64,000 bases of DNA from Candidatus Omnitrophota bacterium (GTDB lineage Bacteria; Omnitrophota; Omnitrophia; Omnitrophales; JACROU01), in NCBI GenBank assembly GCA_029261035.1, contig JAJDCD010000023.1, positions 38,501 to 102,500 of the forward strand, read 5' to 3'. Of this stretch, positions 8,569 through 37,426 are shown piece by piece. The notes under the pieces are model-generated. The model had not been told where the DNA came from and made no database searches. It saw only the letters and a program-made list of their open reading frames with translations. Made by a program: the position numbers and the translations under genes. Position 1 is the stretch's first letter. Each line of letters begins with the position of its first letter.

Positions 8569-8602
8569 TGACTGTCACCAGGCTGCGTTCTCGCAGACCA
8601 TG

Positions 8603-11215: not shown

Positions 11216-11371
11216 AGGGATGCAGTATATATAAAAAACCCTTATGTTTATAGGACTTTTTAACCTTATTTTCCCTTCACACAAGTCTCTTTTCAGGGTA
11301 CAATACTCAGCTTATCTAGCGGCTATTTAGTCGCCTTTAGGATTTTAACTGATTCAATTTATAGGTTATTC

Positions 11372-11722
11372 ATGAATGAAGCTGTACTGATATTTACTCT
11401 TATTTTCTCTGCTTTGATTGTAGGAACCTTACTGGGATTACATCTTTTATTGAGTCCAAAGAACCCTAACTCAGTAAAGTCCGCTCCTTTTGAGTGCGGA
11501 AAGGACCCAATTTCTGAGCCTAAAGGGCGATTATCGGTACGATTTTATATTGTTGCGATGCTTTTTCTTATTTTTGATATCGAACTTGTGTTTCTTTATC
11601 CCTGGGCTGTTTTGTTTAGAGATTTAGGGGTTGTTGGATTTTTGGACATGCTTGTCTTTATTGTTATTTTGATGACAGGCTTTATTTATGCCTGGAAAAA
11701 GGGAGCTTTAAAATGGAGCTAA
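11372..11722 (+). CDS. nuoA: NADH-quinone oxidoreductase subunit A
   Basis: 116 aa, 3 TM segments, FECG...P motif typical of NuoA/ND3. Confidence 0.9.
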   Translation: MNEAVLIFTLIFSALIVGTLLGLHLLLSPKNPNSVKSAPFECGKDPISEPKGRLSVRFYIVAMLFLIFDIELVFLYPWAVLFRDLGVVGFLDMLVFIVILMTGFIYAWKKGALKWS

Positions 11723-12237
11723 CTGCCCCACAAAAAGAAAATATTCAAAAAATTGAACACTCTAACTTGTTTACTCCTGGTTTTTTTAGCTCAAAGGTAT
11801 CTGAGGTTGTGGGTTGGGCAAGAAAGAATTCGATCTTTCAGTTTCCAATGGTAACGGCTTGTTGTGGAATGGAATACATGTCTGTTGCTTGTTCTCATTA
11901 TGATATCGATCGTTTTGGAGCGGGTTTTCCTCGTTTTAGTCCGCGTCAATCCGATGTTCTCTTTGTGGTTGGAACCATTAGTCATAAGATGGCGCCTGTG
12001 ATGAAACGTATTTATGAACAGATGACAGAACCTAAGTGGGTTGTTGCCTTTGGCGTGTGTACTTGTACCGGGGGTTTTTATGATAATTATGCAACGGTTC
12101 AGGGGATCGATACGATTATTCCTGTCGATGTGTATATCCCTGGATGTCCTCCAAGACCAGAGACTGTGATTGATGGACTTATTAAACTTCAAGAAAAAAT
12201 TGAACACTCTGGTTTCGAATCCAGACCTGGAAAGTAA
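11713..12237 (+). CDS. nuoB: NADH-quinone oxidoreductase subunit B
   Basis: CCGMEYM and GCPP Fe-S ligand motifs. Overlaps the nuoA stop codon. Confidence 0.92.
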   Translation: MELTAPQKENIQKIEHSNLFTPGFFSSKVSEVVGWARKNSIFQFPMVTACCGMEYMSVACSHYDIDRFGAGFPRFSPRQSDVLFVVGTISHKMAPVMKRIYEQMTEPKWVVAFGVCTCTGGFYDNYATVQGIDTIIPVDVYIPGCPPRPETVIDGLIKLQEKIEHSGFESRPGK

Positions 12238-12245
12238 TCTAAAAA

Positions 12246-12728
12246 ATGACTGATTTAATAGAAGTAATTCAAAATAAATTCCCAGATTTAGTCGAGTCTT
12301 CTCATAGCCAATGTGGCGACCAGACCGTTGTGCTCAAAAAAGAAGGTCTTTTAACGGTAATGAAGTACGTTCAACATGAGCCTTCTCTTCATTTCAATAT
12401 GTTGATGGATCTTACGGCTGTAGATTACTGGGCTCAACTTAGAAAACCTCGCTTTGATGTGGTTTATCATTTGTATTCAACAACAAAAAATCATCGATTG
12501 CGTATTAAAGTTCAAGTAAGTGAAAAAGAGTGTGAAGTAGATTCGTTAACTTCTTTTTGGCCATCCGCGAATTGGTTTGAAAGAGAAGTGTGGGATATGT
12601 TTGGCGTTAAATTTAAGGGCCATCCAAATATGAAACGTATTTTGATGTACGAAGAGTTTAAAGGGCATCCGTTGAGAAAAGATTATATGTATAACAAAAG
12701 ACAACCTCTTGTGGGGCCTGTGAATTAA
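12246..12728 (+). CDS. nuoC: NADH-quinone oxidoreductase subunit C
   Basis: EREVWDMFGVKFKGHPNMKRIL signature of NuoC/30-kDa subunit. Confidence 0.9.
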   Translation: MTDLIEVIQNKFPDLVESSHSQCGDQTVVLKKEGLLTVMKYVQHEPSLHFNMLMDLTAVDYWAQLRKPRFDVVYHLYSTTKNHRLRIKVQVSEKECEVDSLTSFWPSANWFEREVWDMFGVKFKGHPNMKRILMYEEFKGHPLRKDYMYNKRQPLVGPVN

Positions 12729-12763
12729 GTACGGAAGTCTGATAGTTATAGAAAAAGGAAAAA

Positions 12764-14137
12764 ATGAGCGAATATTCAAAATTAGATGTAACTCAAGAAA
12801 CGATTGATGCTGAGACGGAAGGGATGACGATCAATATGGGTCCTGCCCATCCCGCTATGCATGGTGTTGTCCGTCTGATTATGAATTTAGATGGGGAACG
12901 CATCCGTAAAGTGGATGTTGAGATTGGTTATTTGCATCGAGCGTTTGAAAAGTCGGCAGAGCAAGCCGGTTATCTGCAGGTGATTCCTTATACGGATCGT
13001 TTAAATTATGTGTCTCCACTGATTAATAATTTTGGTTATGCGAGTGCCGTTGAAAAACTGATGGGCATTGAAACTACAGAACGTTGCCAATTTATTCGTG
13101 TGATCATGAGTGAAATTTCTCGTGTTTCGGATCATTTAACTTGTGTAGGAGCTTCAGCGATGGAGTTGGGAGCTTTTACGGCATTTCTGTATTTAATGAA
13201 AGCTAGAGAATATTTGTACGAGCTTGTTGAAGAAGTTACAGGGGCGCGCCTCACAATTTCTTATGTGCGCATCGGAGGGGTTAAGGCAGATTTTCCAGAA
13301 GGTTTTAAGGGAAGAGCGCTTAATGCGATTAAAGAAGTACGAAAAGTTTTAAAAGAAACAAATCAGCTGTTAACGCGTAATCGAATTTTTATGGATCGTT
13401 TAGAAGGAATAGGTCTGATCTCTCAGGAAGATGCGATTGCTCATGGAATTACAGGGCCGTTTCTTCGTTCGACAGGTTGTGATTTTGATTTAAGAAAAGC
13501 GAGTCCTTATTGGGTGTACGACCGTATTGATTTTGATGTCCCAGTTGGAAGTCGCGGAGATAACTATGACCGTTACTTAGTCCGTTTAGAAGAAATGGAA
13601 CAAAGTATGCGTATTATTGAAAAAGCATTCGCATTGATGAAAGAAGGAAGTATTCGCGTAGATGCTCAAGGAAAAGAAATTCCTGCATCTTTGATGGTGG
13701 ACGAAGCCAAGATGGGAAACACAAAAGGTTTCTGGCAGTTCGAACCTCAGGTGGACCCTACGCTAGAAGGAACCGCGAAAAAAAATCAGAAAGCTATTTA
13801 TCCGGATGTTGAAGATAAGAAAGAATTCATGTTGCCGGCGAAAGAAAATACATACGGCAATATTGAAGGGCTCATGAATCATTTTAAATTGATCATGATT
13901 GGTCATGGTACGAGTCCTCCTAAAGGGGAAGTTTATTTTCCTGTTGAGGGAGGGAACGGAGAGCTTGGTTTTTATGTTGTGAGCGATGGGACGGATCGTC
14001 CTTATCGAGTGCGAGTGCATCCTCCTTGCTTTCCTATTATGTCGGCTCTTCCTAAGATGTTGGAAGGGGACATGGTGGCGGATGTGATTGCGACGTTTGG
14101 TTCGGTGAATATGATTGCGGGGGAGTTGGATAGGTAG
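12764..14137 (+). CDS. nuoD: NADH-quinone oxidoreductase subunit D
   Basis: NMGPAHPAMHGVVRL motif; 49-kDa subunit family. At 457 aa it is slightly long for this family. Confidence 0.9.
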   Translation: MSEYSKLDVTQETIDAETEGMTINMGPAHPAMHGVVRLIMNLDGERIRKVDVEIGYLHRAFEKSAEQAGYLQVIPYTDRLNYVSPLINNFGYASAVEKLMGIETTERCQFIRVIMSEISRVSDHLTCVGASAMELGAFTAFLYLMKAREYLYELVEEVTGARLTISYVRIGGVKADFPEGFKGRALNAIKEVRKVLKETNQLLTRNRIFMDRLEGIGLISQEDAIAHGITGPFLRSTGCDFDLRKASPYWVYDRIDFDVPVGSRGDNYDRYLVRLEEMEQSMRIIEKAFALMKEGSIRVDAQGKEIPASLMVDEAKMGNTKGFWQFEPQVDPTLEGTAKKNQKAIYPDVEDKKEFMLPAKENTYGNIEGLMNHFKLIMIGHGTSPPKGEVYFPVEGGNGELGFYVVSDGTDRPYRVRVHPPCFPIMSALPKMLEGDMVADVIATFGSVNMIAGELDR

Positions 14138-14163
14138 ATGTGGGGTTTGAAAGTTGCGTCGTC

Positions 14164-14259
14164 GGAATTATATTTCCCCGGCGCTCAGACAGCACAAAAG
14201 TGACTGTCACCTGGGGTGACCGTCACTTTTGTGAACTCGCGGCGGGGAAATATAATTCC
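14164..14259. mobile_element. MITE-like palindromic element, family B copy 1 (conserved core CCGGCGCTCAGACAGCACAAAA...TTTTGTGAACTCGCGGCGG with 16-bp perfect inverted flanks)
   Basis: Flanks ggaattatatttcccc / ggggaaatataattcc are exact reverse complements. The core is shared with 35270..35353 and 44890..44970. The element sits inside the nuoD-nuoE spacer. Confidence 0.7.
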
Positions 14260-14338
14260 TCCTCCTAGAGAACCAAACGTCTCGTTTTTTATTGGTTTAG
14301 GGCGAGGTGCTTCGCGCAATATGTTTTGCTAATAGCTA

Positions 14339-14410
14339 GTGACTGTCACTTTTGCTTAGTTGAAAATAGTGGAAGAGATTGGCGGTGACAGTCACTGAAG
14401 TGACAGTCAC
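14339..14410 (+). repeat. Family A palindrome array (GTGACTGTCAC ... GTGACAGTCAC tgaa GTGACAGTCAC) immediately upstream of nuoE
   Basis: Three copies of the 11-bp palindrome. The same tripartite unit recurs at 16245..16313 upstream of nuoG. The array ends 27 nt before the nuoE ATG. Confidence 0.75.
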
Positions 14411-14437
14411 CTAAAAAGCTATAGACAAAGGAATATA

Positions 14438-14902
14438 ATGGAAATACCTGAAGAGTTAAAGAAGAAGTGGGATGAGGCTGTGGCGCGGTATGAGGAGAAG
14501 AGGGCTGCTTTGCTTCCTGTGTTGAGATTAAGCCAAGATCATTTTGGGTATATTTCTGCAGAGGTGGAAGAGGCTGTTGCTCATTATATGGGGACGACAC
14601 CTGTTCATATTCGGGAAGTGGTTACTTTTTATGAGCTTTTTCATACGAAGCCTGTGGGTAAGAACAATATTCAATTCTGCCATACGCTTGCTTGTAACTT
14701 GAATGGTTGTGAGCCGTTGATTAAACAGCTGAAAGAAAAGATTGGAATTAAAGAAGGGGAGACCTCTTCCGATGGGAAGTATTCTTTTTCTAGAGCAGAG
14801 TGTTTAGGGGCTTGTGAGATGGCTCCAATGATGAAAATCAACAAAGACATTTATGGTCCGTTGGATAAAGATAAACTAAACGAGATTATTGAGAACCTCT
14901 AA
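14438..14902 (+). CDS. nuoE: NADH-quinone oxidoreductase subunit E (2Fe-2S)
   Basis: Thioredoxin-like [2Fe-2S] NuoE pattern (C..LAC...GC...C). An AAGGA ribosome-binding site precedes the start. Confidence 0.9.
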   Translation: MEIPEELKKKWDEAVARYEEKRAALLPVLRLSQDHFGYISAEVEEAVAHYMGTTPVHIREVVTFYELFHTKPVGKNNIQFCHTLACNLNGCEPLIKQLKEKIGIKEGETSSDGKYSFSRAECLGACEMAPMMKINKDIYGPLDKDKLNEIIENL

Positions 14903-14912
14903 GTTTTAATGG

Positions 14913-14937
14913 GGGACTGTCCCTTCGGGACTGTCCC
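14913..14937. repeat. Tandem GGGACTGTCCC-ttc-GGGACTGTCCC palindromes in the nuoE-nuoF spacer (variant of family A)
   Basis: Two copies of an 11-bp palindrome of the same GNGACTGTCNC form. Confidence 0.6.
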
Positions 14938-14966
14938 AGACTAAGTCTAGAAGGCAACTATTAATT

Positions 14967-16244
14967 ATGACGGAAAAATTAATTACAAAATATTTAGAAC
15001 TTACGGATGCGAATAAAATAGATGTGTTTGAATCTAAGGACGGCTATAGCCGTATCCAAAAAGTCTTAAAAGAATTAAAGCCAGAAGAAGTGGTTGATGA
15101 AGTTAAAAAATCAAACCTTCGAGGGTTGGGTGGAGCTGGTTTCTCTACTGGGATGAAGTGGAGCTTTATTCCTAAGGATGGAAAGAAACCTGTTTATCTT
15201 GTTTGTAATTGTGATGAGGCTGAGCCGGGCACTTTTAAAGACAGACATATTGTTACATCGACACCTCATTTATTGTTAGAGGGGATGATGATTGCTGCTT
15301 TTGCTGTTAATGCACATAAAGCTTACATATTTATTCGGGGTGAGTACGAACGTCCGTACGAACGTCTGGCAAAAGCGGTTGAAGAAGCTTACGCAAAAGG
15401 GTATTTAGGAAAAAATATTTTTGGTAGTGGTTATGATTTGGACATTGTTGTGCATCAAGGTGCTGGCGCTTATATTTGCGGAGAAGAATCGGCATTACTT
15501 GAAGCTCTTGAAGGAAAAAAAGGTTGGCCCAGATTAAAACCTCCTTTCCCTGCCGTTGTTGGGTTGTTTGGCTGCCCTACGGTGATCAACAATGTTGAGA
15601 CTTTATCGTATTTGCCTTTAGTGATGCAAGGTGGGGCAGATTGGTTTTCGAAATTAGCCGGAGAAGAAAAGTCTGGAGGAACGCGTCTTTTTTGTGTGAG
15701 TGGACACGTCAATAAACCTGGAATTTATGAGCTCCCTGTTGATACAACGTTAAGATCTTTGATTTATGATCATGCCGGAGGAATCCGAGGGGGTAAGCAA
15801 TTAAAAGCAGTTGTCCCTGGGGGTATTTCTGCCCCGATATTAAGTGCTGAAGAAATTGATGTCAAAATGGATTTCGATTCTTTGAGAGCTGCTGGAACCA
15901 TGGCGGGATCTGGGGGTGTGATGGTGATGGATGAAGATACCAATATGGTAGAAGCGTTGATGGTTGCTTCTCGTTTTTTTGCTCACGAATCTTGCGGCCA
16001 GTGTTCTCCTTGTCGTGAAGGAAGTGCCTGGCTTTATAAAATTGTGAAACGTATTAATGAAGGTGAAGGCCGTGTTGAGGACTTAGATAGTATGTTGTCT
16101 ATTGCAGGTAATATTTCTGGAACGACTATTTGTGCGTTAGGGGATGCTGCAGCAATGCCTGTCACAAGTTATATTAAAAAATTTAGAAGTGATTTTGAAG
16201 ATTATATTAGTGACTGTCACTTGCCTGTGGAAACACAGAGCTAA
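14967..16244 (+). CDS. nuoF: NADH-quinone oxidoreductase subunit F (NADH/FMN binding, 4Fe-4S)
   Basis: GLGGAGFSTGMKW, ESCGQCSPCREG motifs. A GTGACTGTCAC palindrome (16210..16220) lies within the last codons. Confidence 0.93.
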   Translation: MTEKLITKYLELTDANKIDVFESKDGYSRIQKVLKELKPEEVVDEVKKSNLRGLGGAGFSTGMKWSFIPKDGKKPVYLVCNCDEAEPGTFKDRHIVTSTPHLLLEGMMIAAFAVNAHKAYIFIRGEYERPYERLAKAVEEAYAKGYLGKNIFGSGYDLDIVVHQGAGAYICGEESALLEALEGKKGWPRLKPPFPAVVGLFGCPTVINNVETLSYLPLVMQGGADWFSKLAGEEKSGGTRLFCVSGHVNKPGIYELPVDTTLRSLIYDHAGGIRGGKQLKAVVPGGISAPILSAEEIDVKMDFDSLRAAGTMAGSGGVMVMDEDTNMVEALMVASRFFAHESCGQCSPCREGSAWLYKIVKRINEGEGRVEDLDSMLSIAGNISGTTICALGDAAAMPVTSYIKKFRSDFEDYISDCHLPVETQS

Positions 16245-16313
16245 GTGACTGTCACTATTAGGGCATAGAAAAAATTAGAGAAAGACGGTGACAGTCACTA
16301 AAGTGACAGTCAC
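16245..16313 (+). repeat. Family A palindrome array upstream of nuoG
   Basis: gtgactgtcac...ggtgacagtcac-taaa-gtgacagtcac-ctaaaagcc. Its architecture is collinear with 14339..14410. Confidence 0.75.
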
Positions 16314-16347
16314 CTAAAAGCCAATAGCTATAGGAGTTCGAAGAGTT

Positions 16348-17976
16348 ATGCCAAAAGTTACCATTGATGGTCATGAGATAGAGGTTTCTCAGGGAACAAC
16401 AATCATGCAAGCCACAAAACAGTTAGCAATTGAAGTGCCTTATTATTGTTGGCACCCAGGGCTTTCTGTTGCGGGAAATTGTCGTATGTGTCTTGTGGAT
16501 GTTGAAGGTCCTCCAAAGCCTCAAATTGCGTGTTACACCCAGGTTACTGAGGGAATGGTAGTCCATACGCAGTCTGAGAAGGCGAAGAAAGCACGTAAAG
16601 GAACTTTGGAGTTTTTGCTTTCGAATCATCCTTTGGATTGTCCCGTATGTGACCAAGCTGGAGAGTGTGACCTACAAAATTTTTATATGGATCACGGGCA
16701 ATATGATTCTCGATTTGATGAACAAAAACACAAAAAGAAAAAAGCTCAGCCCGTAGGGGAAAACGTGATGTTGGATCAAGAGCGCTGTGTTCTTTGTTCT
16801 CGCTGTGTTCGGTTTTGTGATGAAATTACAGGTACCGGAGAACTGGGTATTGTGAATCGAGGAAGTCATGAAGAGATTACCGTGTTTCCTGGCAAAGAGG
16901 TCAATAATGCTTACTCAGGTAATGTTGTTGATATTTGTCCTGTCGGGGCTTTAACGGATCGTGATTTTCGTTTTAAATGTCGTGTTTGGTATCTTTCCAG
17001 TCAAGACTCGGTATGTCCGGGGTGTTCTCAAGGTTGTAACATTCGTATTGATTCTAATTTATCTCGACCTCAGCATGGAGAGGGTGAGCGAGTGATGCGT
17101 TTAAAGCCAAGAGAAAACTTGAACGTGAATGATTACTGGATGTGTGACGAGGGTCGTTATAACTATAATTTTATTGATCGTAATCGTATTCAAACAGCTT
17201 CTCGAGTTAAAGAAGGGGTTGTTGAAGAAATTTTATTTGAGGATGCAGTTGATTCTTTGGCAAGTGTTTTAGGAGATGCAGTTAGAGAGCAGAGACATGG
17301 ACGTATCGGGGTTCTTGTTTCAACGCAGTTGACCAACGAAGATCTTTTCTTTGTTAAAAAGTTCTTCAAAACTAATCTGGGGATGGATGCAGTAGAATCT
17401 CGTTTTTCATTTCCTGAAGGAAGTAGTGATGACTTTTTGATTAAAGCAGATAAAAGCCCAAATACAGCAGGGGCACAAGCTTTAGAAGTAATTGCTTCTG
17501 GAACGTATCAATCTGGGGAAGATCTAATTGATAAAACGATTGCAGGAGAGTTTGATGTTTTAATTTCTTTCGGAGTCGATATTGATGGGTTGCTAGGAAA
17601 AGAAAAATTAGATGCGATTCTTGAGAAAGTAACATTACTTGCTTATGTTGGCAGTAATCACAATGAAACATCTAAAAAAGCACAGTTGGTTATTCCGAGT
17701 ACGGTTTATGCAGAAAAAGATGGAACCTTTACCAATGTTCATGGAAGGGTTCAGCGTATTTGGCCTGCATTTCCTCCTTTAGGACAAGCTAGACCCGAAT
17801 GGCAGATTATTTGTGACCTTTCAGAAAAGACAGGTTTCTCTGTGTCTGCAGATGATGCGGAATCTATTTTTAGTGAAATCACACAAACAGTTTCTTCTTT
17901 TCAAGGGTTGAGTTATGAAAAACTAGGAAAAGAAGGAAGTCTATTGAGCACAGTTAAAGAAACTGTAGAGAAATAG
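16348..17976 (+). CDS. nuoG: NADH-quinone oxidoreductase subunit G (short form)
   Basis: N-terminal 2Fe-2S CWHPGLSVAGNCRMCLV, 4Fe-4S cysteine clusters, molybdopterin-like domain. At 542 aa it is shorter than enterobacterial NuoG. Confidence 0.9.
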   Translation: MPKVTIDGHEIEVSQGTTIMQATKQLAIEVPYYCWHPGLSVAGNCRMCLVDVEGPPKPQIACYTQVTEGMVVHTQSEKAKKARKGTLEFLLSNHPLDCPVCDQAGECDLQNFYMDHGQYDSRFDEQKHKKKKAQPVGENVMLDQERCVLCSRCVRFCDEITGTGELGIVNRGSHEEITVFPGKEVNNAYSGNVVDICPVGALTDRDFRFKCRVWYLSSQDSVCPGCSQGCNIRIDSNLSRPQHGEGERVMRLKPRENLNVNDYWMCDEGRYNYNFIDRNRIQTASRVKEGVVEEILFEDAVDSLASVLGDAVREQRHGRIGVLVSTQLTNEDLFFVKKFFKTNLGMDAVESRFSFPEGSSDDFLIKADKSPNTAGAQALEVIASGTYQSGEDLIDKTIAGEFDVLISFGVDIDGLLGKEKLDAILEKVTLLAYVGSNHNETSKKAQLVIPSTVYAEKDGTFTNVHGRVQRIWPAFPPLGQARPEWQIICDLSEKTGFSVSADDAESIFSEITQTVSSFQGLSYEKLGKEGSLLSTVKETVEK

Positions 17977-17988
17977 TTAGAGGAACGT

Positions 17989-19080
17989 ATGAGTGTCGTA
18001 TTTATCCAATCAACATTACAACTTGTAGCCGTCTTCGCTTTTTTTATGGGAGTTCTGTCTTTGGCAGGGCTTCTAACTTGGGTTGAGAGAAAGCAAAGTG
18101 CCGTTATGCAAGATCGTATTGGAGCTAACCGAGCGGAGATTTTTGGATTTCGTTTTTTTGGTTTATTTCATATTATTGCAGATGCGATTAAGATGTTAAC
18201 CAAAGAGAGCTTTATTCCCGCAAAAGCAGATAAGTTTTTATATCAGCTTGCACCCATTATTTCTGTTTTTTTTGCCTTGATTACTTTTGCAGCGATTCCT
18301 TTCGGCAATGATCTGAAATTTGGAGAGTATGTCGTTCCTCTTCAAGGGCTTGATTTCAATGTGGGTCTTCTCTTTATTTTTGCGATGTTATCTATCGCGG
18401 TCTATGGAGTTATATTGGCCGGCTTTTCTTCGCAAAGTAACTTTTCTTTTTTAGGAGGTTTACGAGCAACCTCTCAGTTACTTGCTTACGAAATGGCCAT
18501 GGGAATTTCGATTATAGGCTTGGTTATGTGTTATGGATCTTTGAATTTAAATGAATTGGTTCATTCCCAGGGGGATTATTTGTGGGGTTGGTTACCAAAG
18601 TGGGGATTTTTTTTACAGCCTTTAGGCTTTATTATTTTTCTTATTGCAGGGATTGCAGAAAGTAAGCGAGTTCCTTTTGATATTCCAGAAGGAGAGTCTG
18701 AAATTGTAGGGTACTTTGTGGAATACAGTGGAATGCGATTCGGCTTATTTTTCTTAACAGATTTCTTGGAAACAATTTTAATTTCTTGTTTGGCGGCAGT
18801 TCTTTTTTTTGGCGGCTGGCAGGTTCCAGGGCTTTTTGAGGACGGTTTTCATTTTTGGAATGGGGTTGTCTGGAATTTACCTTCATTTGTAGTTACAATC
18901 ATTGGTGTTTTTGCTTTTATTTTTAAAATTGCTTTCTTTTGTTGGTTTTTAATGACGATTCGTTGGACATTGCCTCGATTCCGTTATGATCAATTGATGC
19001 ATTTGGGATGGAAAATTCTATTTCCACTCTCTATTGCAAATATTCTTATTACAGGAACCGTCATTCTTTTATTAAGCTAA
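17989..19080 (+). CDS. nuoH: NADH-quinone oxidoreductase subunit H
   Basis: 8-TM ND1 family protein with the conserved EGESE..GY..EYSG motif. Confidence 0.92.
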   Translation: MSVVFIQSTLQLVAVFAFFMGVLSLAGLLTWVERKQSAVMQDRIGANRAEIFGFRFFGLFHIIADAIKMLTKESFIPAKADKFLYQLAPIISVFFALITFAAIPFGNDLKFGEYVVPLQGLDFNVGLLFIFAMLSIAVYGVILAGFSSQSNFSFLGGLRATSQLLAYEMAMGISIIGLVMCYGSLNLNELVHSQGDYLWGWLPKWGFFLQPLGFIIFLIAGIAESKRVPFDIPEGESEIVGYFVEYSGMRFGLFFLTDFLETILISCLAAVLFFGGWQVPGLFEDGFHFWNGVVWNLPSFVVTIIGVFAFIFKIAFFCWFLMTIRWTLPRFRYDQLMHLGWKILFPLSIANILITGTVILLLS

Positions 19081-19117
19081 ATTAGCGCTAAAGAGAAAGT
19101 GTTAGACAGAGGACGTT

Positions 19118-19678
19118 ATGGCAACAATACAAGTTGAACGAAAAAAAATGAATTTGTTGGAGCGGATATATCTTCCGGAAATTATCCGAGGGTTTAGGAT
19201 TACAACATTTCACTTCTTTAGGAATCTTTTATTTCATCTGTTTCGAGCATTTGGATTTAAAAATTTCAAAGGTGCAGTTACGTTCCAATATCCAGAAGAA
19301 CAAAGGCCTTTGTCTGACCGTTTAAGAACGCGTCATCGTCTCATGCAAAGGGAAGATGGGTCTCCTCGTTGTGTGGCTTGTATGATGTGCGAAACCGTAT
19401 GTCCTGCTAAGTGTATCTACATTGAAGCTGCAGAACATCCAGATCCGAACATTGAAAAGATTCCTGCGAGTTTTGATATTGATTTAGGAAAATGTGTGTA
19501 TTGTGGTTTTTGTGTTGAAGCTTGTCCTGAAGATGCGATTCGTATGGATACTAAAATTTTAGATATCGCGTCATTAACGAGAGGCGGACTTTATTACACA
19601 ATGGAAGAACTTCTCCACCCAGAACAGCATGGCGCTAAAATAGAAGAAGCACGTAATAAGGTTCTCCCACCAAAGTAG
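19118..19678 (+). CDS. nuoI: NADH-quinone oxidoreductase subunit I (2x4Fe-4S)
   Basis: Two ferredoxin-type cysteine motifs, CVACMMCETVCP and CVYCGFCVEACP. Confidence 0.92.
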   Translation: MATIQVERKKMNLLERIYLPEIIRGFRITTFHFFRNLLFHLFRAFGFKNFKGAVTFQYPEEQRPLSDRLRTRHRLMQREDGSPRCVACMMCETVCPAKCIYIEAAEHPDPNIEKIPASFDIDLGKCVYCGFCVEACPEDAIRMDTKILDIASLTRGGLYYTMEELLHPEQHGAKIEEARNKVLPPK

Positions 19679-19752
19679 CCATCAATTGTTAGCTAAAAAC
19701 AAAACTATTATTCCAATAAATGTCATTGCGAAGCATAGACTAAAGAGTTGAA

Positions 19753-19791
19753 GCAATCTCGGATAAAAAGATTTCTTTTGCTTGAGATTGC
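19753..19791. terminator. Hairpin between convergent nuoI (+) and nuoN (-), a candidate bidirectional terminator
   Basis: gcaatctc...gagattgc 8-bp stem enclosing an inner aaaaga-tt-tctttt hairpin. It lies in the 200-bp gap where the two nuo half-operons converge. Confidence 0.4.
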
Positions 19792-19880
19792 CGCGGCTCA
19801 TTTGCTTGCACCTCCTGCCCAACAAGATGGCGGACAGGCGTAATGACAGGCTTTTAACGTATTTGCTGATATCTATTAGC

Positions 19881-21299
19881 TTAGAAAAGGCTTGTTGCAG
19901 CTTGCTGACATAAGTGAATAAATGGACCCGGAACAACTCCCAAGATAACTACGAAACCAACCGTTAAATAAAGAGAAATTTGAGTGGATAGAGGAATGTT
20001 AATAGGAGAAGTGTCTTTGGGTTTTTCAAGAAACATTTTTCCAACAATAGAAAGATAGTAATAAGCGCTTAAGATAGCCATAAAAATTCCAATCACAGCT
20101 AACCATAAAAAACCTTCATTAACAGCGCTGTACAGCACAAGTAGTTTTGCAACAAAGCCACTGGTGGGTGGGATGCCTGTTAAAGACAATAGAGAAACAA
20201 AAAGACATGTCGCAAGCATTGGAGACTTTTCTTTTAAGCCTTCATATTCGATGACACGATCATTTTCGGAATGATTTGCAAGTAATGAAAGCACAAAAAA
20301 AGCAGCTAAGTTTGTTGCGATTAAACTAAAGAGATAAAAAAGTACAAATCCTACTCCAATAGCATCGGAAGCTAAAAACCCCATTAGAATAAAGCCAGCA
20401 TGAGACATGCTTGAGAATCCAAACAACCTCTTAATATTTTTCTGTGGAATGGCTGCAAAGTTTGCGTAAACCAATGTAGCAGCGATGATGACCGCAAAAA
20501 TAATAGAAATCTGATTTTGGATTGGCAAAAAGATTTCATAGAAGATTCTCAAAAAAATTGTTATAGCGGCTGTTTTTGAAGCAATAGAAAAGAAGGCGGT
20601 AACAGGTGTTGGCGAACCTTCGTAAACATCTGGAGCCCAAACTTGAAAAGGAACAATGGCCATCTTAAATGTTAGAGAAATAAAGATAAAAAGAAAACCT
20701 ACAATGAGCAAAGTTTGATCGGATCCGCTAGAGAGCAAAGCATTTTTAATCGTTAGGATGTCTAAGCTAGCAGAACCTCCATAAATTAAACTCATCCCTA
20801 AGAGCCCAAAAGCAGTAGAGATAGCTCCAAATATTAAGTATTTGATACCTGCTTCAATCGATGCTCGTGCATGCTTTAGGTAAGAGGTCATGATATAACT
20901 GGAAAAAGTAATAATTTCGAGGCCAATAAAGATGAGTAAGAGGTTGGTGCTGGAGACACCGAAGCTCATGCCGATAATGGCGGCAATGAGAAGAAGATAA
21001 AACTCTCCTTGTCCGCCTACTAGTTTCGTTGCGTAGGTACGAATCATTAGAGATAGAAAAAAACCAATAATGAGAAATAAAACTTTTGCCAATTTAGAAA
21101 ATTCATCTTGAACATACATTCCTTCAAACAGGGATCCGGATTCGTTCCAAAAGAAAATTTGAGCAACTAAAGCTAAAAGAAAACCCAAAGCGGTTAGTAT
21201 GCCCAGAAGAGATCTTTTATTTTTAGACAGAAGTAAATCTGAAAATAGAACAATAAATAAGGTGGCAATGAGAAATATTTCAGTAATCATTAAAAACAT
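19881..21299 (-). CDS. nuoN: NADH-quinone oxidoreductase subunit N
   Basis: 472 aa, ~14 TM segments, ND2/NuoN antiporter-like family. Confidence 0.88.
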   Translation of the reverse strand: MFLMITEIFLIATLFIVLFSDLLLSKNKRSLLGILTALGFLLALVAQIFFWNESGSLFEGMYVQDEFSKLAKVLFLIIGFFLSLMIRTYATKLVGGQGEFYLLLIAAIIGMSFGVSSTNLLLIFIGLEIITFSSYIMTSYLKHARASIEAGIKYLIFGAISTAFGLLGMSLIYGGSASLDILTIKNALLSSGSDQTLLIVGFLFIFISLTFKMAIVPFQVWAPDVYEGSPTPVTAFFSIASKTAAITIFLRIFYEIFLPIQNQISIIFAVIIAATLVYANFAAIPQKNIKRLFGFSSMSHAGFILMGFLASDAIGVGFVLFYLFSLIATNLAAFFVLSLLANHSENDRVIEYEGLKEKSPMLATCLFVSLLSLTGIPPTSGFVAKLLVLYSAVNEGFLWLAVIGIFMAILSAYYYLSIVGKMFLEKPKDTSPINIPLSTQISLYLTVGFVVILGVVPGPFIHLCQQAATSLF

Positions 21300-21304
21300 A
21301 ATGC

Positions 21305-22813
21305 TTATATGAGCTCAGAATTTGTCTTAAGCTCTTCTCCTTTTTCTATGATCTTTAATTGTGTTAATCCATTTTCAAAATCTTTGAGTGCCAGCGTGGG
21401 ACAAAAACCAATTAAGAGCAAAAAGCCAATAAGAAGAAGGAACGGCACTTTACAAAAAAGACTTTTAACAGGTTCTTCTGTATTTTGGTGACTTTCTTTA
21501 ATGGGACCAAAGAAAATATTTCGAATTGCCCTAAACATATAAATTGCAGTTAATAGGACGCATATCAGAACTCCAATGGTCAGCCATTGATATTGATTCC
21601 AAACGGCAAATAAGATAACAAGTTCGCCTGCAAAGTTTGCAAACCCAGGAACGCTGGATGCGGCAAGTGCGGCTAAAGAGAAGCAGGTTGCGGTGAAAGG
21701 CCAATTAATTGCAAGCCCTCCTAAAGCATCAATCTGTGTTGTTCCCATTTTTCTTTCAACCAGTTCTGCAATCAGAAAGAGCAGTGCGACAAGCAACCCA
21801 TGAGAAAACATTACGAGCATAGCTCCTGCTGTACCTAAACTTGTAAAACAGGCGAGTCCAATAATAACAAAACCCATATGGCTTGAACTGGAATACCCAA
21901 TTAAATTTCTTAATTCTTTTTGCGCTAGAGCAATAAAACCGACGTAAACCAAATTCATCATAATCCACAAAGCAAGCCAAGGCATCCAAAGGGCTGCTGC
22001 ATCTGGCAACATAAGAAGTCCAAAGCGAATGAGCCCATAAGCACCTACTTTTTTAAGGACACCGGCAAGAAGCATACTTCCAGCGGTAGGAGCAGAAGAA
22101 TAACCAATAGGTCCCCACGCATGAAAAGGCCACACAGCAGAAAGAATTCCAAACCCGATTAAAAAGAAAGCGAAGAGCTTATGCTGAAGGGCTAAGCTTA
22201 AAGGGTTTGCTTGAAGATGTGCGCCGAGTTGAACCATATCCATTGTTTGAATGGCAGGTAAAAAATACAATCCGAGAAGGCCGACCAAAACAAATGCAGA
22301 AGCTAAAATCGCGTAGAGTGTAAATTGCATTGCTGCAAATTTTTTCTCTCCCCGACCCCAGTTGCTAATAAGAGGGTAAGAAACTAAAGCTTCAATTTCT
22401 AAAAAGAGAAAGAAGAAAAACAAATTAACAGATAAGAATGTGCCGTAAGCACCTAAAGTGAGTAAAAGGTATAAAAGGTAAAATCCTTTAGCGTCTTTTT
22501 GAATAGAGCTACACGCATATAGCCCAGCAAAGCTGACTAAAGAAGTTAAAACAATAAGCCAAACATTAATTCCATCGACCCCTAAGTGAAGATTGATTTC
22601 AGGGGTTTGAATCCATGATAATTGGGAGATGAATTGAAAGCTCGTGTTTGTTCTGTCTAATTTTAAAAGGACAAATAGAGCGAGTGCTAAACAAGCTGAG
22701 GAGCTAATCCAAGCTATGGTTTTGATTAGCTTCAATTGAGAAGAAGGGACTAAGGCCATTAAAGCCAGAGAAGCCATTGGGATTGCAATAAAGTAAAAAG
22801 ATAAATCAATCAT
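21305..22813 (-). CDS. nuoM: NADH-quinone oxidoreductase subunit M
   Basis: 502 aa, ND4/NuoM family. Confidence 0.88.
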   Translation of the reverse strand: MIDLSFYFIAIPMASLALMALVPSSQLKLIKTIAWISSSACLALALFVLLKLDRTNTSFQFISQLSWIQTPEINLHLGVDGINVWLIVLTSLVSFAGLYACSSIQKDAKGFYLLYLLLTLGAYGTFLSVNLFFFFLFLEIEALVSYPLISNWGRGEKKFAAMQFTLYAILASAFVLVGLLGLYFLPAIQTMDMVQLGAHLQANPLSLALQHKLFAFFLIGFGILSAVWPFHAWGPIGYSSAPTAGSMLLAGVLKKVGAYGLIRFGLLMLPDAAALWMPWLALWIMMNLVYVGFIALAQKELRNLIGYSSSSHMGFVIIGLACFTSLGTAGAMLVMFSHGLLVALLFLIAELVERKMGTTQIDALGGLAINWPFTATCFSLAALAASSVPGFANFAGELVILFAVWNQYQWLTIGVLICVLLTAIYMFRAIRNIFFGPIKESHQNTEEPVKSLFCKVPFLLLIGFLLLIGFCPTLALKDFENGLTQLKIIEKGEELKTNSELI

Positions 22814-22824
22814 AAAGAGTCTCG

Positions 22825-24687
22825 CTATAATTTAAATAAAATAACAACTAAAGTAAAAATAACTACAATTTGAACTGCAAGAATCAAAGCGTACGTTTGT
22901 ACATTGCCCGTTAATAATTTTCTAGAAACATTTCCTACTTGGTAAACAACGATCCCTGTCCAGTGACTGAGAGCTTTAATAGCAATCCACTCGTTTGTAA
23001 TATCGCAGAGGCGAGCAAAGGGTTGTTGGATTTTGGAAACGTAAAAATTATAAATTTCATCTATAAAATATTTTCTTTCAAATAGTGTGTAAAGAGGACC
23101 TAATCCTTTAGATAAAGGATCTTGAGATTGAGTTTTCCTCCCGTAAATTAAGTAGGAAGAAATAAGTCCGAATAAAATAACTCCTGTTGAAATGAGAGCG
23201 AGAAAATTTCCTTCAGTGCCATGATGAGATTCATGAGCAGCTCTTCCTAAGAGTTCTGGAATTCCAAAGAACCCTGCGAAGATGGAGAAAAAAGATAAAA
23301 CAATTAAAGGAAAGAGCAGAATAAAAGGAGATTCATGAATGTCGCTTGGTTTTCTTTGTGGGCCTAAAAAGGTGAGGCTAAAAACTCTCCCCATATAAAA
23401 CGAGGTTAGAAATGTTGTTCCTAAAACAACAATGAAAGCGAGCATGGAATGTCCATGCGCGAGTGTTAAGATTTCTTCTTTACTAAAAAACCCTGATGTT
23501 GGAAACAGACCGCAAAGAGCAAGAGTTCCGATTAAAAATGTGAGTGTGGTGATAGGCATCTTTTTTGAAAGGCCACCCATTTCAAATAAGTTCTGGGTAT
23601 GCACCGCATGAATGATACAGCCTGAGCCTAAGAATAAAAGGGCTTTAAAAAATCCATGTGTGAGCAGGTGATACATTCCCGAAACGGGTCCTGCGAGACC
23701 CATGGCGAGTACCATAAACCCGAGTTGACTCATCGTAGAGAATGCGAGCACACGTTTGATATCGCTTTGGCAAACCGCCATTGTTGCTGCTGTAATCGCT
23801 GAAAGACCCCCGATTATCGCAACAATAGTAAGTAATTCTTCAGAAATCGTAAAGATGAAAAAAGTTCTGGCTAGTAAATAAACACCTGCGGCAACCATGG
23901 TTGCCGCATGGATTAAAGCGCTGACGGGTGTGGGTCCTTCCATAGCGTCTGGCAACCAAACGTGTAATGGAAGTTGAGCGGACTTACCAATAACACCACA
24001 TAAAATAAGAAGTCCTGCTAAAAGAATAGCTCCAGAAGAGATGACGCCTAGTTGAACTTGAGTGGGAATACTTTGAGCGAGCCCTGCAAAGTCAACGGTT
24101 CTAGAAACTCCAGTTGGATCAGAAAGAAACCACAAAAATAAAATTCCTAATATAAAACCAAAATCACCAACGCGATTAACTAAAAAAGCTTTTTTACTGG
24201 CGTCAGCAGCACTGTCTTTTGAAAACCAAAAACCAATTAAAAGATAAGAAGCAAGCCCAACTAATTCCCAGAAAATAAAGGTTTGAACAAAATTATTAGA
24301 AAACACAATGCCGAGCATAGCCGATGCGAAAAGTGCTAAGTAAGCAAAAAATCGAGAGTAGCCTTTATCTTCTTCCATATAACCCATCGAGAAAATAAAA
24401 ATAAGACTTCCTACTCCAGAAACCAATAACCCCATCAAAATAGAGAGTTGATCGAACAGAAGCCCCAGTTCAAAGTGAAGCCCCATTATAGAAATCCAAG
24501 GAACGGATATAACTTGAGGAAAACTGCTTGGATTGGATTGCATTTGCATGAAGAGTTGAACAATCAATACGAACGGAATAAGAAGGCTACCCACAGAAAT
24601 CCATCCACACAGCTTTTTCCATCGAAACAGAAAAAGACTGATTAAAGCAAAGCCTATAAGTGGAGAAAGAATGATGAGTGAAGTCAT
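22825..24687 (-). CDS. nuoL: NADH-quinone oxidoreductase subunit L
   Basis: 620 aa, ND5/NuoL family. Confidence 0.9.
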   Translation of the reverse strand: MTSLIILSPLIGFALISLFLFRWKKLCGWISVGSLLIPFVLIVQLFMQMQSNPSSFPQVISVPWISIMGLHFELGLLFDQLSILMGLLVSGVGSLIFIFSMGYMEEDKGYSRFFAYLALFASAMLGIVFSNNFVQTFIFWELVGLASYLLIGFWFSKDSAADASKKAFLVNRVGDFGFILGILFLWFLSDPTGVSRTVDFAGLAQSIPTQVQLGVISSGAILLAGLLILCGVIGKSAQLPLHVWLPDAMEGPTPVSALIHAATMVAAGVYLLARTFFIFTISEELLTIVAIIGGLSAITAATMAVCQSDIKRVLAFSTMSQLGFMVLAMGLAGPVSGMYHLLTHGFFKALLFLGSGCIIHAVHTQNLFEMGGLSKKMPITTLTFLIGTLALCGLFPTSGFFSKEEILTLAHGHSMLAFIVVLGTTFLTSFYMGRVFSLTFLGPQRKPSDIHESPFILLFPLIVLSFFSIFAGFFGIPELLGRAAHESHHGTEGNFLALISTGVILFGLISSYLIYGRKTQSQDPLSKGLGPLYTLFERKYFIDEIYNFYVSKIQQPFARLCDITNEWIAIKALSHWTGIVVYQVGNVSRKLLTGNVQTYALILAVQIVVIFTLVVILFKL

Positions 24688-24989
24688 TATTGTTTTAAAT
24701 CCGTAAAGTCTGTTACATCGATTGTTTTTTGAGTTCTAAAAAGTAAAATACAAATAGCCAGTCCTATGGCAACTTCTCCGGCGGCAATGGCCATAGAGAA
24801 TAGGGTGACAATTTGGCCTTCCAAATTACCATGAGCTTGAGAGAAAACAACAAAACTTAAATTCACAGCATTAAATAAGAGTTCTATAGAAAGTAAAACT
24901 AAAATTGCATTTTTTCGTGTAAAAATGCCAATCAGACCAATGGCAAAGAGAACGAAAGCGACTGTTAAATAATGAGATAAAGGAATCAT
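24687..24989 (-). CDS. nuoK: NADH-quinone oxidoreductase subunit K
   Basis: 100 aa, 3 TM segments, ND4L family. Confidence 0.9.
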   Translation of the reverse strand: MIPLSHYLTVAFVLFAIGLIGIFTRKNAILVLLSIELLFNAVNLSFVVFSQAHGNLEGQIVTLFSMAIAAGEVAIGLAICILLFRTQKTIDVTDFTDLKQ

Positions 24990-25487
24990 TTACAAATCTT
25001 TCTTCGCTAAAACTACCGAGCCAATAATGGCTACGAGCAAAATTAAAGATAAAAGTTCAAATGGAAGTAAGTATTTTGAAAATAAGAGTTTTCCTAAGCT
25101 TTCAACGGTACCTTCAACTAATACGATGTTTTCAGACGTAGTTTCTTTGAAAGAACGAACCAACATAAAAAGTCCTGCAAGAGAAAGAATGCTCAGTCCA
25201 AGACTTAGGCCATAGCGAACCGGATTTTTCCAGAAAACAGGAGACTCATTGTTGTATCCAAGCAACATGAGTACAAATAGAAACAGGACTAAAATAGCGC
25301 CAGCATACAGAGTGATATGGATTATGGCGACGAAATAAGCCTTTAAAAGCAGAAAAAGGATAGCTAAAGAGAACATGCCTACAAGAAAGCTCAGCACGCA
25401 ATAAACGGGATTTCTTAAAGTTATCGCTAAAAGTGCCGAAAATAGCAGGATACTCGAAAATAAATAAAAGGATGTTGTTTCTAGCAT
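24990..25487 (-). CDS. nuoJ: NADH-quinone oxidoreductase subunit J
   Basis: 165 aa, ND6 family; carries the VLYAGAILVLFLFVLMLL motif. Confidence 0.88.
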   Translation of the reverse strand: MLETTSFYLFSSILLFSALLAITLRNPVYCVLSFLVGMFSLAILFLLLKAYFVAIIHITLYAGAILVLFLFVLMLLGYNNESPVFWKNPVRYGLSLGLSILSLAGLFMLVRSFKETTSENIVLVEGTVESLGKLLFSKYLLPFELLSLILLVAIIGSVVLAKKDL

Positions 25488-25700
25488 AGCCCTCTGAACC
25501 GGTAAATGGGTTAGGTAAAGTTGAGTATAATAACTTAAAATGCAGCTCCTGTAAAGATGTCCAAAAGGTTACTCCTTAGGGCAATTTTCCACTAAATTAT
25601 TCGCTAAAATCTGTTCTCATTGACACATAGAATAGAATATTAGCTTCACAAATTATTAAAGACTTTAACAAGTTTTTATAAACAAAATTTTGAGAGGTTT

Positions 25701-28700
25701 ATGAGGTTTTTTTTAGTATTTCAGCAACAATTGAGAGTCCTAACCTATTTCCTTATTCTTACCTTCGGACTCGACTCTATTTCCCTGGCCCATGCTCAAT
25801 CTGTTACTGCATCCGTGAACGTTGCACCGAGCATTGGGTTGGGGGATTATTCTTCTTTTCCAGATAATCTTGGAAATATCATTCAAAAAAACGAAATATC
25901 TAAAAATGCCTTTAATCTGATTCACTTACAAGACGCCCACGCTAATCCTGAAGCCCAAAAAAAAATTGCGGAACTCATTCGATACTTTTCAGAAGAACAA
26001 GGGTATAACACTGTTTTTGTTGAAGGAGCGTATGGGAGATTGGATAAACGTTATATTGAATTTACAGATGATTTTTCATTAAATCAAAAAATTGCAGAGC
26101 GCCTCACTGCTTTGGGAGAGTTTACAGCGCCGGACGTTTATTTATCAAAAAATAAAAAAAGCACCCTTCAATTTTTAGGAATCGAAGACCCCCAACTTTA
26201 CAGAAAAAATGTAACGCATTTAAAAAAGATATACCAATCTAGAGAAGAAATTGAAAGTTGGATTGAAGCAAAAAAATTAATATTGGATCGAAAAAACTCT
26301 CGTCTAAAAAACAAAAACCTTTTCTATTTATTTAAAACATTTTTAGAACTTTCTGAAAAAACGAACAATTTCAGCCGTCATTTAGTTCAATTAAATACGA
26401 TCTCCAAAAGAGAGTTGGGAAGAGACCTTCAGGATGCGAAAGAACAAATAGAATATCCTAATATTGTTCGATTTTTAAGACTCTTTAAAGAGCAAAAGCT
26501 GGACCGCGAAAAAGCTCGTGTGGAGTGGGAGGAAATAGTAAAAACAATCTCGAAACAAAAGCAGTTCTTAAAGAGAGCACCTTCTTTTAAAGAACTCAAC
26601 GATCTAAATGTTAGGGTTCTTCTAGAAACCTTAGTGGAGGAGCAGGGGGTTGATTTTAAAGGGTTTCCCATTTTTTCAAAGTACGCAAAGGCTCTTATTT
26701 ATCAACAAGAAATGGATGGGGCGGCTTTGTTTGCAGAGCTTAACACGTGGCTCTTATCATTAATCAATCATTTTAGTTTGGAAGCTCAAAGCAAGAATCT
26801 TTTCAAAGAAATTCAGCTTTTTATTTTAATTAAAAAACTTTTGAAGCTCGAGTTAAAAAGAGAAGAGTGGGGTCTGATTAAGGATGAAGAAATCAAAGAT
26901 AAAGAAGTGCAAAACTTAATTGATGAAGCGCTTCTTTTTTATAAAGCTGCTGAGAAAAGAGAACAACCCTTTTTGGAACAAATTCAGAATCAGATCAAAA
27001 ATAAAAAAATAAAAAAAGCAATTTTACTTACGGGAGGATTTCATACTCCTGCGTTATTGAAACATGCAAATGAAGATGGCTGGAATTCTGTGGTTATTGC
27101 TCCTCAGCTTACTTCAGCAGTGGATCAAGATGATTATTTCAAAAATTTTATGGGAAGAGACCCTAAAGACATTGATGTCTCACAAGTAGTAACTCAGCCT
27201 TATTCTATTTCTCCAGAAACGGCAGTTGCGCTTGGTGTCGATCTTGCTAATAGACAGCAATTAGTAAACACTATCACTAGAGAGTTTGTGAAGGCGAGTA
27301 GCCTTGGGGAAAGGAAAGAAATCCTTCCGGGGTTTTTTGAAGAACGCCCTCTTTTTATTCCTAAAGACGGTCGTATTTTACGTTCCAATGAGAGACTTTT
27401 ACTTCAAGCAGGAGACCACTATTTTTATGTTGATGAAAAAAGAGTTGTTCAGGTGGATTCGACTGGGAAAAAAATAAAGCAAATTAAAATTGCAAATAAG
27501 CCTTTAAAACGATGGGAACTCTCTGAAGGAAAGAAGATGGTTTCTCGATCGCATTGGGCGTCTAATGAGAAAGAATTTATATGGTTGAAACACTATTTTC
27601 AATGGCAGAGATTGGCTAAAAAGGTTTATTTGAACGACCCGGTACTTATTGGACAAGGAGTTACATCTAAAGTTTACTCAATGAACGTTGCTATGCCTCA
27701 AGACGGTGTTGTTAGAACCTTAATAGGCACAGAATTTGTGAAGAAAAAAGACAAGACGATAGGCAGAAAAAGGGATTATGGTTTAGTGGGATATGAGGTT
27801 CAAAAAGGAGATTTCCAAGATGAGCCTGTTCCTGTGGGGGCAGTTAGAAAGTTGATTATAAAGACAAGCTCATTTAGCACAAAACGCTCTATTGCTTATC
27901 AAGAACTGATTCGCGATCGATTTGCGAGTACTTTTATTGCAAAGACTGCAGAGTTGCCTTCGAGGCACCCTGTAGCGCATGAGTTAGGATTAGAGCAGTT
28001 TGGCCGCGAACGCATCTTGCTTCAAGAGCCTTTGATTCCTTTAAGCCAAATTTTAAGAGAAGCTCGTGGCTATGAGAGACAATATTGGGCTAATCAATTT
28101 GTTCGGAGAGTGGAGGATTTTTGGAAGAGAGGCTACGTAGACTTAGATGCCAGGACAGATAATTGGGGCGTTAACAGCGAGGGTAAGCTTGTGTTTCATG
28201 ACTTTGATTTCGTTATGAGCTTATCGGAGATGGATAAGGGAATTAAGGGTAAAAGAGAAGACAAGTTAACCGTGTTGAGTCGTAAAATTCAGTTTTTTGC
28301 TAATTTTATTATTAATAATGTGTCATTTTTATATTCTTTAGATCCTGAGTTGGCTAAGCACTTTTATGAGCGTGTTGTTCATATTTCTTTTGAGTTAGAA
28401 AATAAGCAGAAGCTTTATTTGTTTAATGATATTTTGTCTAACGCGGCCGGGACATCTAAGCAATTAAAAAACTGGGAACAGCATTGGAAACGTATTGAGG
28501 TATTTGCTAAGCAGCTGATTCAAGCACATGAAGAACAAGCTTCTAAAGAAAAGCGAAAAGAAATAGTGAAAGATGTTTTCAATTTTTTAAGAGCTTCAGT
28601 GAAGAAAAGGCAAGCATTGATGACTCAGGTTTTACGTTTAGTAGCTCCGGCTTCACAAAGCGAACTTAAAGGAGATCAAATTAGAAGGCAAAAAGGGCGC

Positions 28701-37423: not shown

Positions 37424-37426
37424 GTT

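Follow-up and report, generated by a model that had tools for sequence, protein, structure and literature searches.

We analysed a 64,000-nucleotide stretch of DNA (contig JAJDCD010000023.1 of assembly GCA_029261035.1, positions 38,501 to 102,500; hereafter the window) for the organisation of its genes for respiratory complex I, NADH:quinone oxidoreductase. The nuo genes lie in two adjacent blocks on opposite strands, with nuoJ-N facing nuoA-I. The reading that we favour, at a probability of about 0.85, is that nuoJ-N was inverted in place long ago, in the ancestor of an Omnitrophota-like lineage of the Planctomycetes-Verrucomicrobia-Chlamydiae (PVC) group, leaving two facing units that would together supply one complex I. 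Judged from the genomes compared here, this layout would be an ancient, conserved and biologically ordinary gene-order variant that is lineage-wide and not peculiar to this genome.

Gene content and layout of the complex I locus

The fourteen genes were taken from the list of open reading frames (ORFs) and typed with Pfam and, where indicated, NCBIfam models:

11372-11722, + strand, nuoA (Pfam)
11713-12237, + strand, nuoB (Pfam)
12246-12728, + strand, nuoC (Pfam)
12764-14137, + strand, nuoD (Pfam, NCBIfam)
14438-14902, + strand, nuoE (Pfam)
14967-16244, + strand, nuoF (Pfam)
16348-17976, + strand, nuoG (Pfam)
17989-19080, + strand, nuoH (Pfam, NCBIfam)
19118-19678, + strand, nuoI (Pfam, NCBIfam)
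19881-21299, - strand, nuoN (Pfam, NCBIfam)
21305-22813, - strand, nuoM (Pfam, NCBIfam)
22825-24687, - strand, nuoL (Pfam, NCBIfam)
24687-24989, - strand, nuoK (Pfam, NCBIfam)
24990-25487, - strand, nuoJ (Pfam)

The nuoA-I block thus occupies the + strand from 11372 to 19678 with nine ORFs, and the nuoN-M-L-K-J block the - strand from 19881 to 25487 with five. A first-pass annotation, made from the sequence alone, had reported all 14 subunits with nuoJ-N on the strand opposite to nuoA-I, and its coordinates match the ORFs exactly. Each subunit is intact, single-copy within the 64-kb window and typed to family. All 14 products score far above the gathering cut-off of the Pfam family expected for them, with NuoN, NuoM and NuoL all matching Proton_antipo_M; NCBIfam tells these three antiporter-like paralogues apart as N (TIGR01770, 382.9 bits against a cut-off of 332.6), M (TIGR01972, 379.7 against 263.8) and L (NF005141, 637.5 against 556). 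Subunits K, I, H and D also exceed their NCBIfam cut-offs, while NuoJ and NuoA fall below the equivalog cut-offs of NCBIfam and above those of Pfam.

The N-module is present, with NuoE matching 2Fe-2S_thioredx, NuoF matching Complex1_51K and NADH_4Fe-4S, and NuoG matching Fer2_4, NADH-G_4Fe-4S_3 and Fer4_Nqo3, and it sets the locus apart from the 11-subunit NDH-1 and Fpo types. The nearest solved relatives of NuoD and NuoG are the 49-kDa and 75-kDa subunits of complex I. By these assignments the locus encodes a complete 14-subunit (NUO14-type) complex I, whose assembly into one active NADH:quinone oxidoreductase is predicted. It shares with the canonical single nuoA-N (nqo1-14) operon the 14 core subunits, separate NuoC and NuoD, the N-module and the in-block orders A-I and J-N; it differs in that the J-N block lies on the opposite strand facing nuoI, so that at least two promoters are needed. 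Two of the products also depart from their canonical counterparts; the other ORFs are of normal length. In NuoD some 58 aa (residues ~303-360) are inserted relative to the solved 49-kDa/Nqo4 subunits, and its relatives are of similar length (457-474 aa). NuoG, of 542 aa, is shorter than the solved complex I homologues (632-910 aa) and scores 462.9, just under the TIGR01973 cut-off of 470.05.

Within the - strand block the gaps, in the transcription order J-K-L-M-N, are 0, -1, 11 and 5 nt, a pattern that fits a putative single operon. The + strand gaps mostly range from -10 to 64 nt (nuoA and nuoB overlap by 10 nt, B-C is 8 nt and C-D is 35 nt), with the exception of a 300-nt D/E and a 103-nt F/G spacer. 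The nuoI/nuoN spacer, put at about 200 bp in the first-pass annotation, measures 202 bp, and 213 bp separate nuoJ from the next gene on its upstream side, a giant ORF. Inverting 19881-25487 restores the canonical A-N order, as had been claimed, by geometry alone. The accompanying view that the split separates the antiporter-like membrane arm from the rest needs a qualification: two membrane subunits, NuoA and NuoH, remain in the first unit, and the antiporter-like subunits are L, M and N alone.

The convergent layout in separate assemblies

The first-pass annotation had itself named an assembly or scaffolding artefact, with the nuoJ-N segment wrongly oriented, as the explanation that would undo its proposal. 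The source is evidently a metagenome-derived assembly, and across the outer junction between nuoJ and the giant gene (junction 2) no separate contig was found over 25358-26426. Against an artefact stands Logan, a separate assembly from raw reads (SRR15505516, SRR15505518), in which a 3137-bp contig from SRR15505516 is 100% identical to window positions 17650-20786 and carries part of nuoG, nuoH, nuoI and a convergent nuoN fragment, reproducing the inner junction between nuoI and nuoN (junction 1). Further Logan contigs from the two runs are 100% identical to 26427-33569 and 23946-25357. The same orientation recurs in eight other contigs, which come from different samples and assemblers, and junction 2 is backed by comparison: nuoJ heads its block, after an unrelated gene, in every relative whose upstream side is visible, and in one relative (L009) nuoJ is likewise divergent from a giant gene. 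Together, the Logan contig over junction 1 and the layout of the relatives exclude the artefact scenario, which is effectively refuted and which we hold to be extremely improbable.

Conservation of the layout among relatives

Neighbourhoods of related genes were assembled from exact-protein look-ups, and the 14 window subunits were searched by tblastn against 170 fetched loci. The closest NuoN proteins among 5.8 billion sequences are 62% identical to that of the window. Comparison of gene order with relatives, the check that the first-pass annotation had proposed, recovered the convergent order J-K-L-M-N / I-H-G-F-E-D-C-B-A in at least eight other loci from other samples, with NuoN 39-62% and NuoD 64-81% identical. 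The loci that bear on the layout are as follows:

L002, convergent, a 2.17-Mb JGI contig with the same flanks as the window
L003 and L004, convergent, two assemblies of one organism
L005, convergent, the nuoN and nuoI reading frames overlapping by 9 nt (3785-3793)
L007, convergent, with a methyltransferase gene between the blocks after nuoN, and NuoE-F fused (621 aa)
L011, convergent, with 2.9 kb between the blocks, labelled 'Planctomycetales'
L091, L092 and L093, convergent
L006, nuoJ-N as a stand-alone unit
L008, nuoJ-N as a stand-alone unit, labelled 'Chlamydiae'
L009, L024 and L026, contigs that end too early to show the layout

The flanks of L002 include the MFS gene beside nuoA and the flavin reductase, ThyX, MBL and 170-aa ORF genes beside nuoJ, and differ from those of the window only by the absent giant gene. 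In the metagenome scan the three best among the matches listed are exactly the three convergent ones; in the scan of genome contigs the matches listed include one close GTDB representative, L009. In other phyla (Chloroflexota, Acidobacteriota, Verrucomicrobiota, Pseudomonadota, Nitrospirota and others) H/I and K-N share a strand wherever the upstream genes are visible. Junction features of the relatives include, in L003, an extra 126-aa ORF after nuoI (11507-11887) and an A/T-rich hairpin, and, in L007, the intervals 11428-12165 and 15850-17715, which hold the methyltransferase gene and the NuoE-F fusion.

Since the layout is shared despite the divergence of NuoN and NuoD, the inversion would be older than deep splits within the lineage. 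A recent, strain-specific inversion would account for the geometry of the locus and nothing more; it is refuted by the common layout of genomes this divergent, and we give it almost no weight. A different history would have the two blocks functionally or historically separate, with nuoJ-N acquired independently or serving as an Mrp-like module for other partners as well. The stand-alone nuoJ-N units of L006 and L008 would suit such a history, as would the mobility of nuo modules in the PVC group, where the NuoA-H subunits of Chlamydiae branch with Terrabacteria and are reported as gained (PMC9816063). However, J, K, L, M and N match Nuo models best and not Mrp models, genes for MrpE, MrpF and MrpG were not found nearby, there is one copy of each subunit within the window, and nuoN adjoins nuoI in nine loci as a single inversion predicts. 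In addition, the identities of the A-I and J-N subunits drop in parallel across relatives, which fits one locus evolving as a whole. We regard separate histories for the two blocks as highly improbable, and prefer an in-place inversion of part of one ancestral locus.

The phylum label is itself drawn from comparison, and the labels of L011 and L008 make it probable and not certain. The closest named NuoN homologue is labelled Candidatus Omnitrophica, and the named close ThyX homologues (57-65% identity) all carry that label except one from Candidatus Eisenbacteria (P0148). A Chlamydiota origin, suggested by the double-length ThyX, a G+C content of 38% and one NuoN match labelled 'Chlamydiae', was weighed and set aside for Omnitrophota on the strength of these labels. 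The window also encodes a DUF1571 protein, of a family associated with Planctomycetes, which would fit a PVC origin. Candidatus Omnitrophota is placed in the PVC group in the NCBI taxonomy, and an Omnitrophota-like label is probable for the window.

Candidate promoters of the two units

The first-pass annotation had proposed two units that each need their own promoter, with that of nuoJ-N in 25488..25700. This view is supported in its core, as each block is preceded by a candidate promoter, the second of them inside the proposed region:

11276..11313, + strand, candidate sigma-70-type promoter of nuoA-I: TTCACA-17-TACAAT then ACTCAGCTT
25518..25555, - strand, candidate sigma-70-type promoter of nuoJ-N: TTTACA-17-TATTAT then ACTCAACTT

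The hexamer pairs occupy 11276-11304 (+) and 25555-25527 (-), and the -10 elements end 67 nt before the nuoA ATG and 39 nt before the nuoJ ATG. In a sigma-70 scan of 10900-26000 both candidates match 10 of 12 positions with a 17-nt spacer; seven sites tie at this score, the nuoA and nuoJ sites being the first two listed, and the scan found 27 promoter-like sites against 35 expected, which is not above chance. The nuoA site and the downstream CAGCTTAYCTAG are kept upstream of nuoA in L002 and L005, and a matrix built from the sites of other genomes only ranks the window site first among ~128,000 window positions (36.2 bits against 10.6 for the next). Similarly placed nuoJ sites in L003 and L009 are the top matches in their loci, and a matrix trained on nuoA sites finds the nuoJ-upstream site of L009 at 14.1 bits against -4.2 for the next. 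Within the window, an unbiased search for the best ungapped 38-nt alignment of the two upstream regions places both sites in register with 25 of 38 matches, a score reached by 1 of 200 shuffles. These results point to a strongly conserved candidate promoter for nuoA, with its function putative, and lend moderate support to the nuoJ candidate, likewise of putative function. It is plausible that nuoJ has an independent promoter built broadly like that of nuoA.

A composite promoter pattern with 2 matches against 0.01 expected was discarded as circular, having been derived from those two sites, and was replaced by the matrices and the pairwise alignment. No Rex box or other operator common to both upstream regions was evident, the TTGTGA/TTCACA half-sites being isolated. 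A -35/-10 pair followed by GGCTTA, like the nuo candidates, also lies at ~42553-42516 on the - strand, upstream of a ResB-like gene (40738-42522); this site ranks 2nd with the six-site cross-genome matrix and 1st with a nuoJ-only matrix (14.4-20.9 bits). The build of the nuo sites may represent a general strong-promoter form in this organism and not a nuo-specific one.

In the mechanism that we propose, nuoA-I would be transcribed rightwards from the promoter at ~11276-11304 and nuoJ-N leftwards from its own at ~25555-25527. The similar architecture of the two promoters could provide roughly matched expression and thus a simple co-ordination of the two units, and the products of both transcripts would come together in a single enzyme, since the assembly of complex I does not depend on the order of its genes in an operon; Oppermann et al., cited in PMC12361115, reportedly obtained such a gene-order result in E. 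coli.

As a separate observation on orientation, the cumulative GC skew rises steadily from position 1 to ~54 kb and then falls, turning at ~54000-56000. If the skew is a replication bias, nuoA-I would run with replication and nuoJ-N against it; gene orientation could explain the skew equally well.

The palindrome between nuoI and nuoN

A stem-loop at 19753..19791 had been placed where the two halves converge, and it is real and lies as placed. It forms the core of a longer element:

19721..19852, no strand assigned, imperfect palindrome of ~130 nt in the nuoI/nuoN spacer: GTCATTGCGAG ... GGCAATCTC - loop - GAGATTGCC ... CTCGCAATGAC

The inner stem pairs 19753-19762 with 19782-19791, and the hairpin has a folding energy of -24 kcal/mol on the + strand (z = -4.7) that none of 200 shuffles equalled. 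In L002 the corresponding spacer contains a better kept hairpin of ~100 nt (z = -8.3 and -6.7), and the two elements align at their termini, GTCATTGCGAG ... CTCGCAATGAC, and at the inner stem, GGCAATC.C ... GAGATTGCC. The pattern GAGATTGC-N(5-35)-CGCAATGAC recovers further members of the family, which has one copy within the window:

L002, three copies in all, one in the nuoE/F spacer: 632-667, 11432-11551, 16169-16288
L007, three copies, in the nuoC/D spacer, in the nuoA/B spacer and upstream of nuoA: 19046-19159, 20264-20377, 20778-20891
L027, one copy: 17195-17312
L074, one copy: 13260-13357

The last two belong to one locus each from a Chloroflexi and a Methanosarcinales metagenome-assembled genome. 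No T-run or U-tract follows the window hairpin on either strand, and the terminator scan of the locus did not call it; an intrinsic (Rho-independent) terminator was considered for this stable hairpin and dropped, since such a terminator has a U-tract directly after a G+C-rich hairpin. Rfam gave nothing at the gathering threshold over the whole window, the spacers yielding chance hairpin matches with E = 0.15-1, and a search with the sequence words of the repeat family returned unrelated primers and no published description.

The stem-loop is a decayed member of a dispersed intergenic repeat family and not a device dedicated to the convergence point, because the repeat also occurs in nuo spacers of relatives, lacks a U-tract and is missing from some junctions. 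In class it would be like the repetitive extragenic palindromic (REP) elements of E. coli or like miniature inverted-repeat transposable elements (MITEs). It shares with such palindromes an imperfect dyad with conserved termini and inner stem and a scattering through intergenic spacers, some inside operons; it differs in that one copy lies in the 64 kb of the window and in that copies of the family span phyla. We treat the palindrome as a passenger repeat that may incidentally limit read-through or stabilise 3' ends and that the arrangement would not need.

This bears on the idea that the convergent layout is a regulatory device that couples or balances the two transcripts by antisense, interference or a bidirectional terminator. 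The strong hairpin at the window junction, its homologue at the L002 junction, the hairpin at the L003 junction and the overlap of stop codons by 9 nt in L005, where the transcripts must overlap, could all be read in this way. However, the hairpin has no U-tract, and its repeat recurs in nuoE/F, nuoC/D and nuoA/B spacers as well as in other phyla; what lies at the junction differs from relative to relative (a repeat, an overlap, an extra ORF, a methyltransferase gene or 2.9 kb of other DNA); and L006 and L008 lack any adjacency of the blocks. We consider a regulatory role of the convergence highly unlikely, and keep to the view of an inherited inversion.

Other repeats and neighbouring genes

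A second set of repeats lies inside the nuoA-I block:

14138..14437, no strand assigned, nuoD/nuoE spacer of 300 bp with five GTGACWGTCAC palindromes, one with a single mismatch

With up to one mismatch, GTGACWGTCAC occurs 12 times in the window against 0.31 expected by chance, at 8568-8613, 14200-14410, 16210-16313 and 53731. The 103-bp nuoF/G spacer has three copies and the final codons of nuoF a further one, and several copies form paired units, GGTGACAGTCACTNAAGTGACAGTCACC. The motif was not found in any of the related loci fetched. It may represent a REP-like repeat peculiar to this genome or an array of operators.

Two giant ORFs lie in the window:

25701..30785, + strand, giant ORF of 1694 aa, divergent from nuoJ, with no Pfam match, a neighbour and not part of complex I
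34-8568, second giant ORF of 2844 aa

At the N-terminus the two resemble each other weakly (25% over 190 aa). The first-pass annotation had the 25488..25700 region shared between nuoJ-N and the first of these genes. The two are indeed divergent in the window and in L009, where a giant homologue (3949-5346, 30% identity), seen in its N-terminal 500 residues, begins close upstream of nuoJ and is read in the opposite direction; the gene is not a constant neighbour, being absent in L002 between nuoJ and the flavin reductase gene in an otherwise syntenic stretch. Also on the nuoJ side of the window, at 30876-33063, are a double-length ThyX (523 aa, with two Thy1 stretches) and the flavin reductase gene, and these neighbours are kept in L002 (2902-5211), L003 (1-2024) and L093. 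In L008, nuoN converges on genes for the small and large subunits of an aconitase-family enzyme (11415-13612), 63-75% identical to window 36017-38080, which lies ~10 kb beyond nuoJ in the window. This suggests further rearrangement around the same neighbourhood.

Discussion

The weight of the evidence lies with an old inversion whose two products, nuoA-I and nuoJ-N, would have remained parts of one complex I locus, and several points weigh against this interpretation or against parts of it. The census of relatives draws in part on NuoN-alignment scans of genome and metagenome contigs whose listed matches were mostly from distant phyla, and its counts are at least the loci given. In a weakly resolved neighbour-joining tree of NuoN, a canonical Verrucomicrobiota-like group falls among the split lineages, so that several inversions would fit as well as one. 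At junction 2 the two flanking Logan contigs start at 26427 and stop at 25357, and an exact look-up of the NuoJ protein returned no record and hence no confirmation of this junction by that route. Both promoters and the operon boundaries are read from the DNA; the aligned promoter sites were partly picked by eye; the nuoJ site ranks between 7th and 40th among the ~128,000 positions with a matrix from six sites in other genomes; and the chance of such a site falling in the 213-nt region is roughly p = 0.01-0.07. Finally, the 300-bp D/E and 103-bp F/G spacers may hold internal promoters or terminators, in which case nuoA-I would be more than one unit. A count of inversion events from the NuoN tree was dropped on account of its weak resolution.

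A further possibility is that the I/J break is a selected design and not a neutral one, with J-N controlled independently (for stoichiometry against the peripheral arm plus NuoA and NuoH) or deployed with other partners. If true, selection would explain why the break persists in the same place over deep divergence and why free-standing nuoJ-N units occur in L006 and L008, and the stoichiometry would be set by matched promoters together with overlapping 3' ends or a hairpin where the blocks converge. We judge a selected break to be very unlikely, and retain the ordinary, ancient inversion as our explanation.

Split nuo clusters are already well documented, and the window locus belongs among them. 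Surveys have defined 'split' operons, with Bdellovibrio as an example and dispersed groups in cyanobacteria (PMC4758237), and have found a mix of split and single-cluster complex I in most clades (PMC12361115); by the definition used in both, the window qualifies, having at least two sub-clusters and not one co-directional operon. Like the split loci of these surveys, it distributes the genes of one predicted enzyme over more than one transcription unit; it differs from them in that its parts are adjacent and convergent, the break falls exactly at I/J, and the layout is conserved across a deep lineage. Our literature search found no description of an adjacent convergent I/J break or of its conservation in Omnitrophota-like genomes. 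The cluster rule of PMC12361115 requires genes on the same strand at 250 bp or less, and the window locus would consequently be scored as three partial clusters. Among 176 complete Omnitrophota genomes, complex I has been reported as fragmentary, with no full operon and no nuoG (preprint 10.64898/2026.06.07.730766). Judged from its genes, the window demonstrates what appears to be the full set in at least one Omnitrophota-like lineage.

In summary, the locus leaves the current understanding of complex I unchanged. It suggests that strict thresholds combined with a split layout may hide a complete complex I in some lineages, and the short NuoG, just under its model cut-off, may contribute to calls of 'nuoG absent' in surveys of Omnitrophota. 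The convergent junction of nuoI and nuoN could be used as a synteny marker of this PVC sub-lineage, and the arrangement would stand as a natural example of complex I tolerating a long evolutionary separation of nuoJ-N from nuoA-I.

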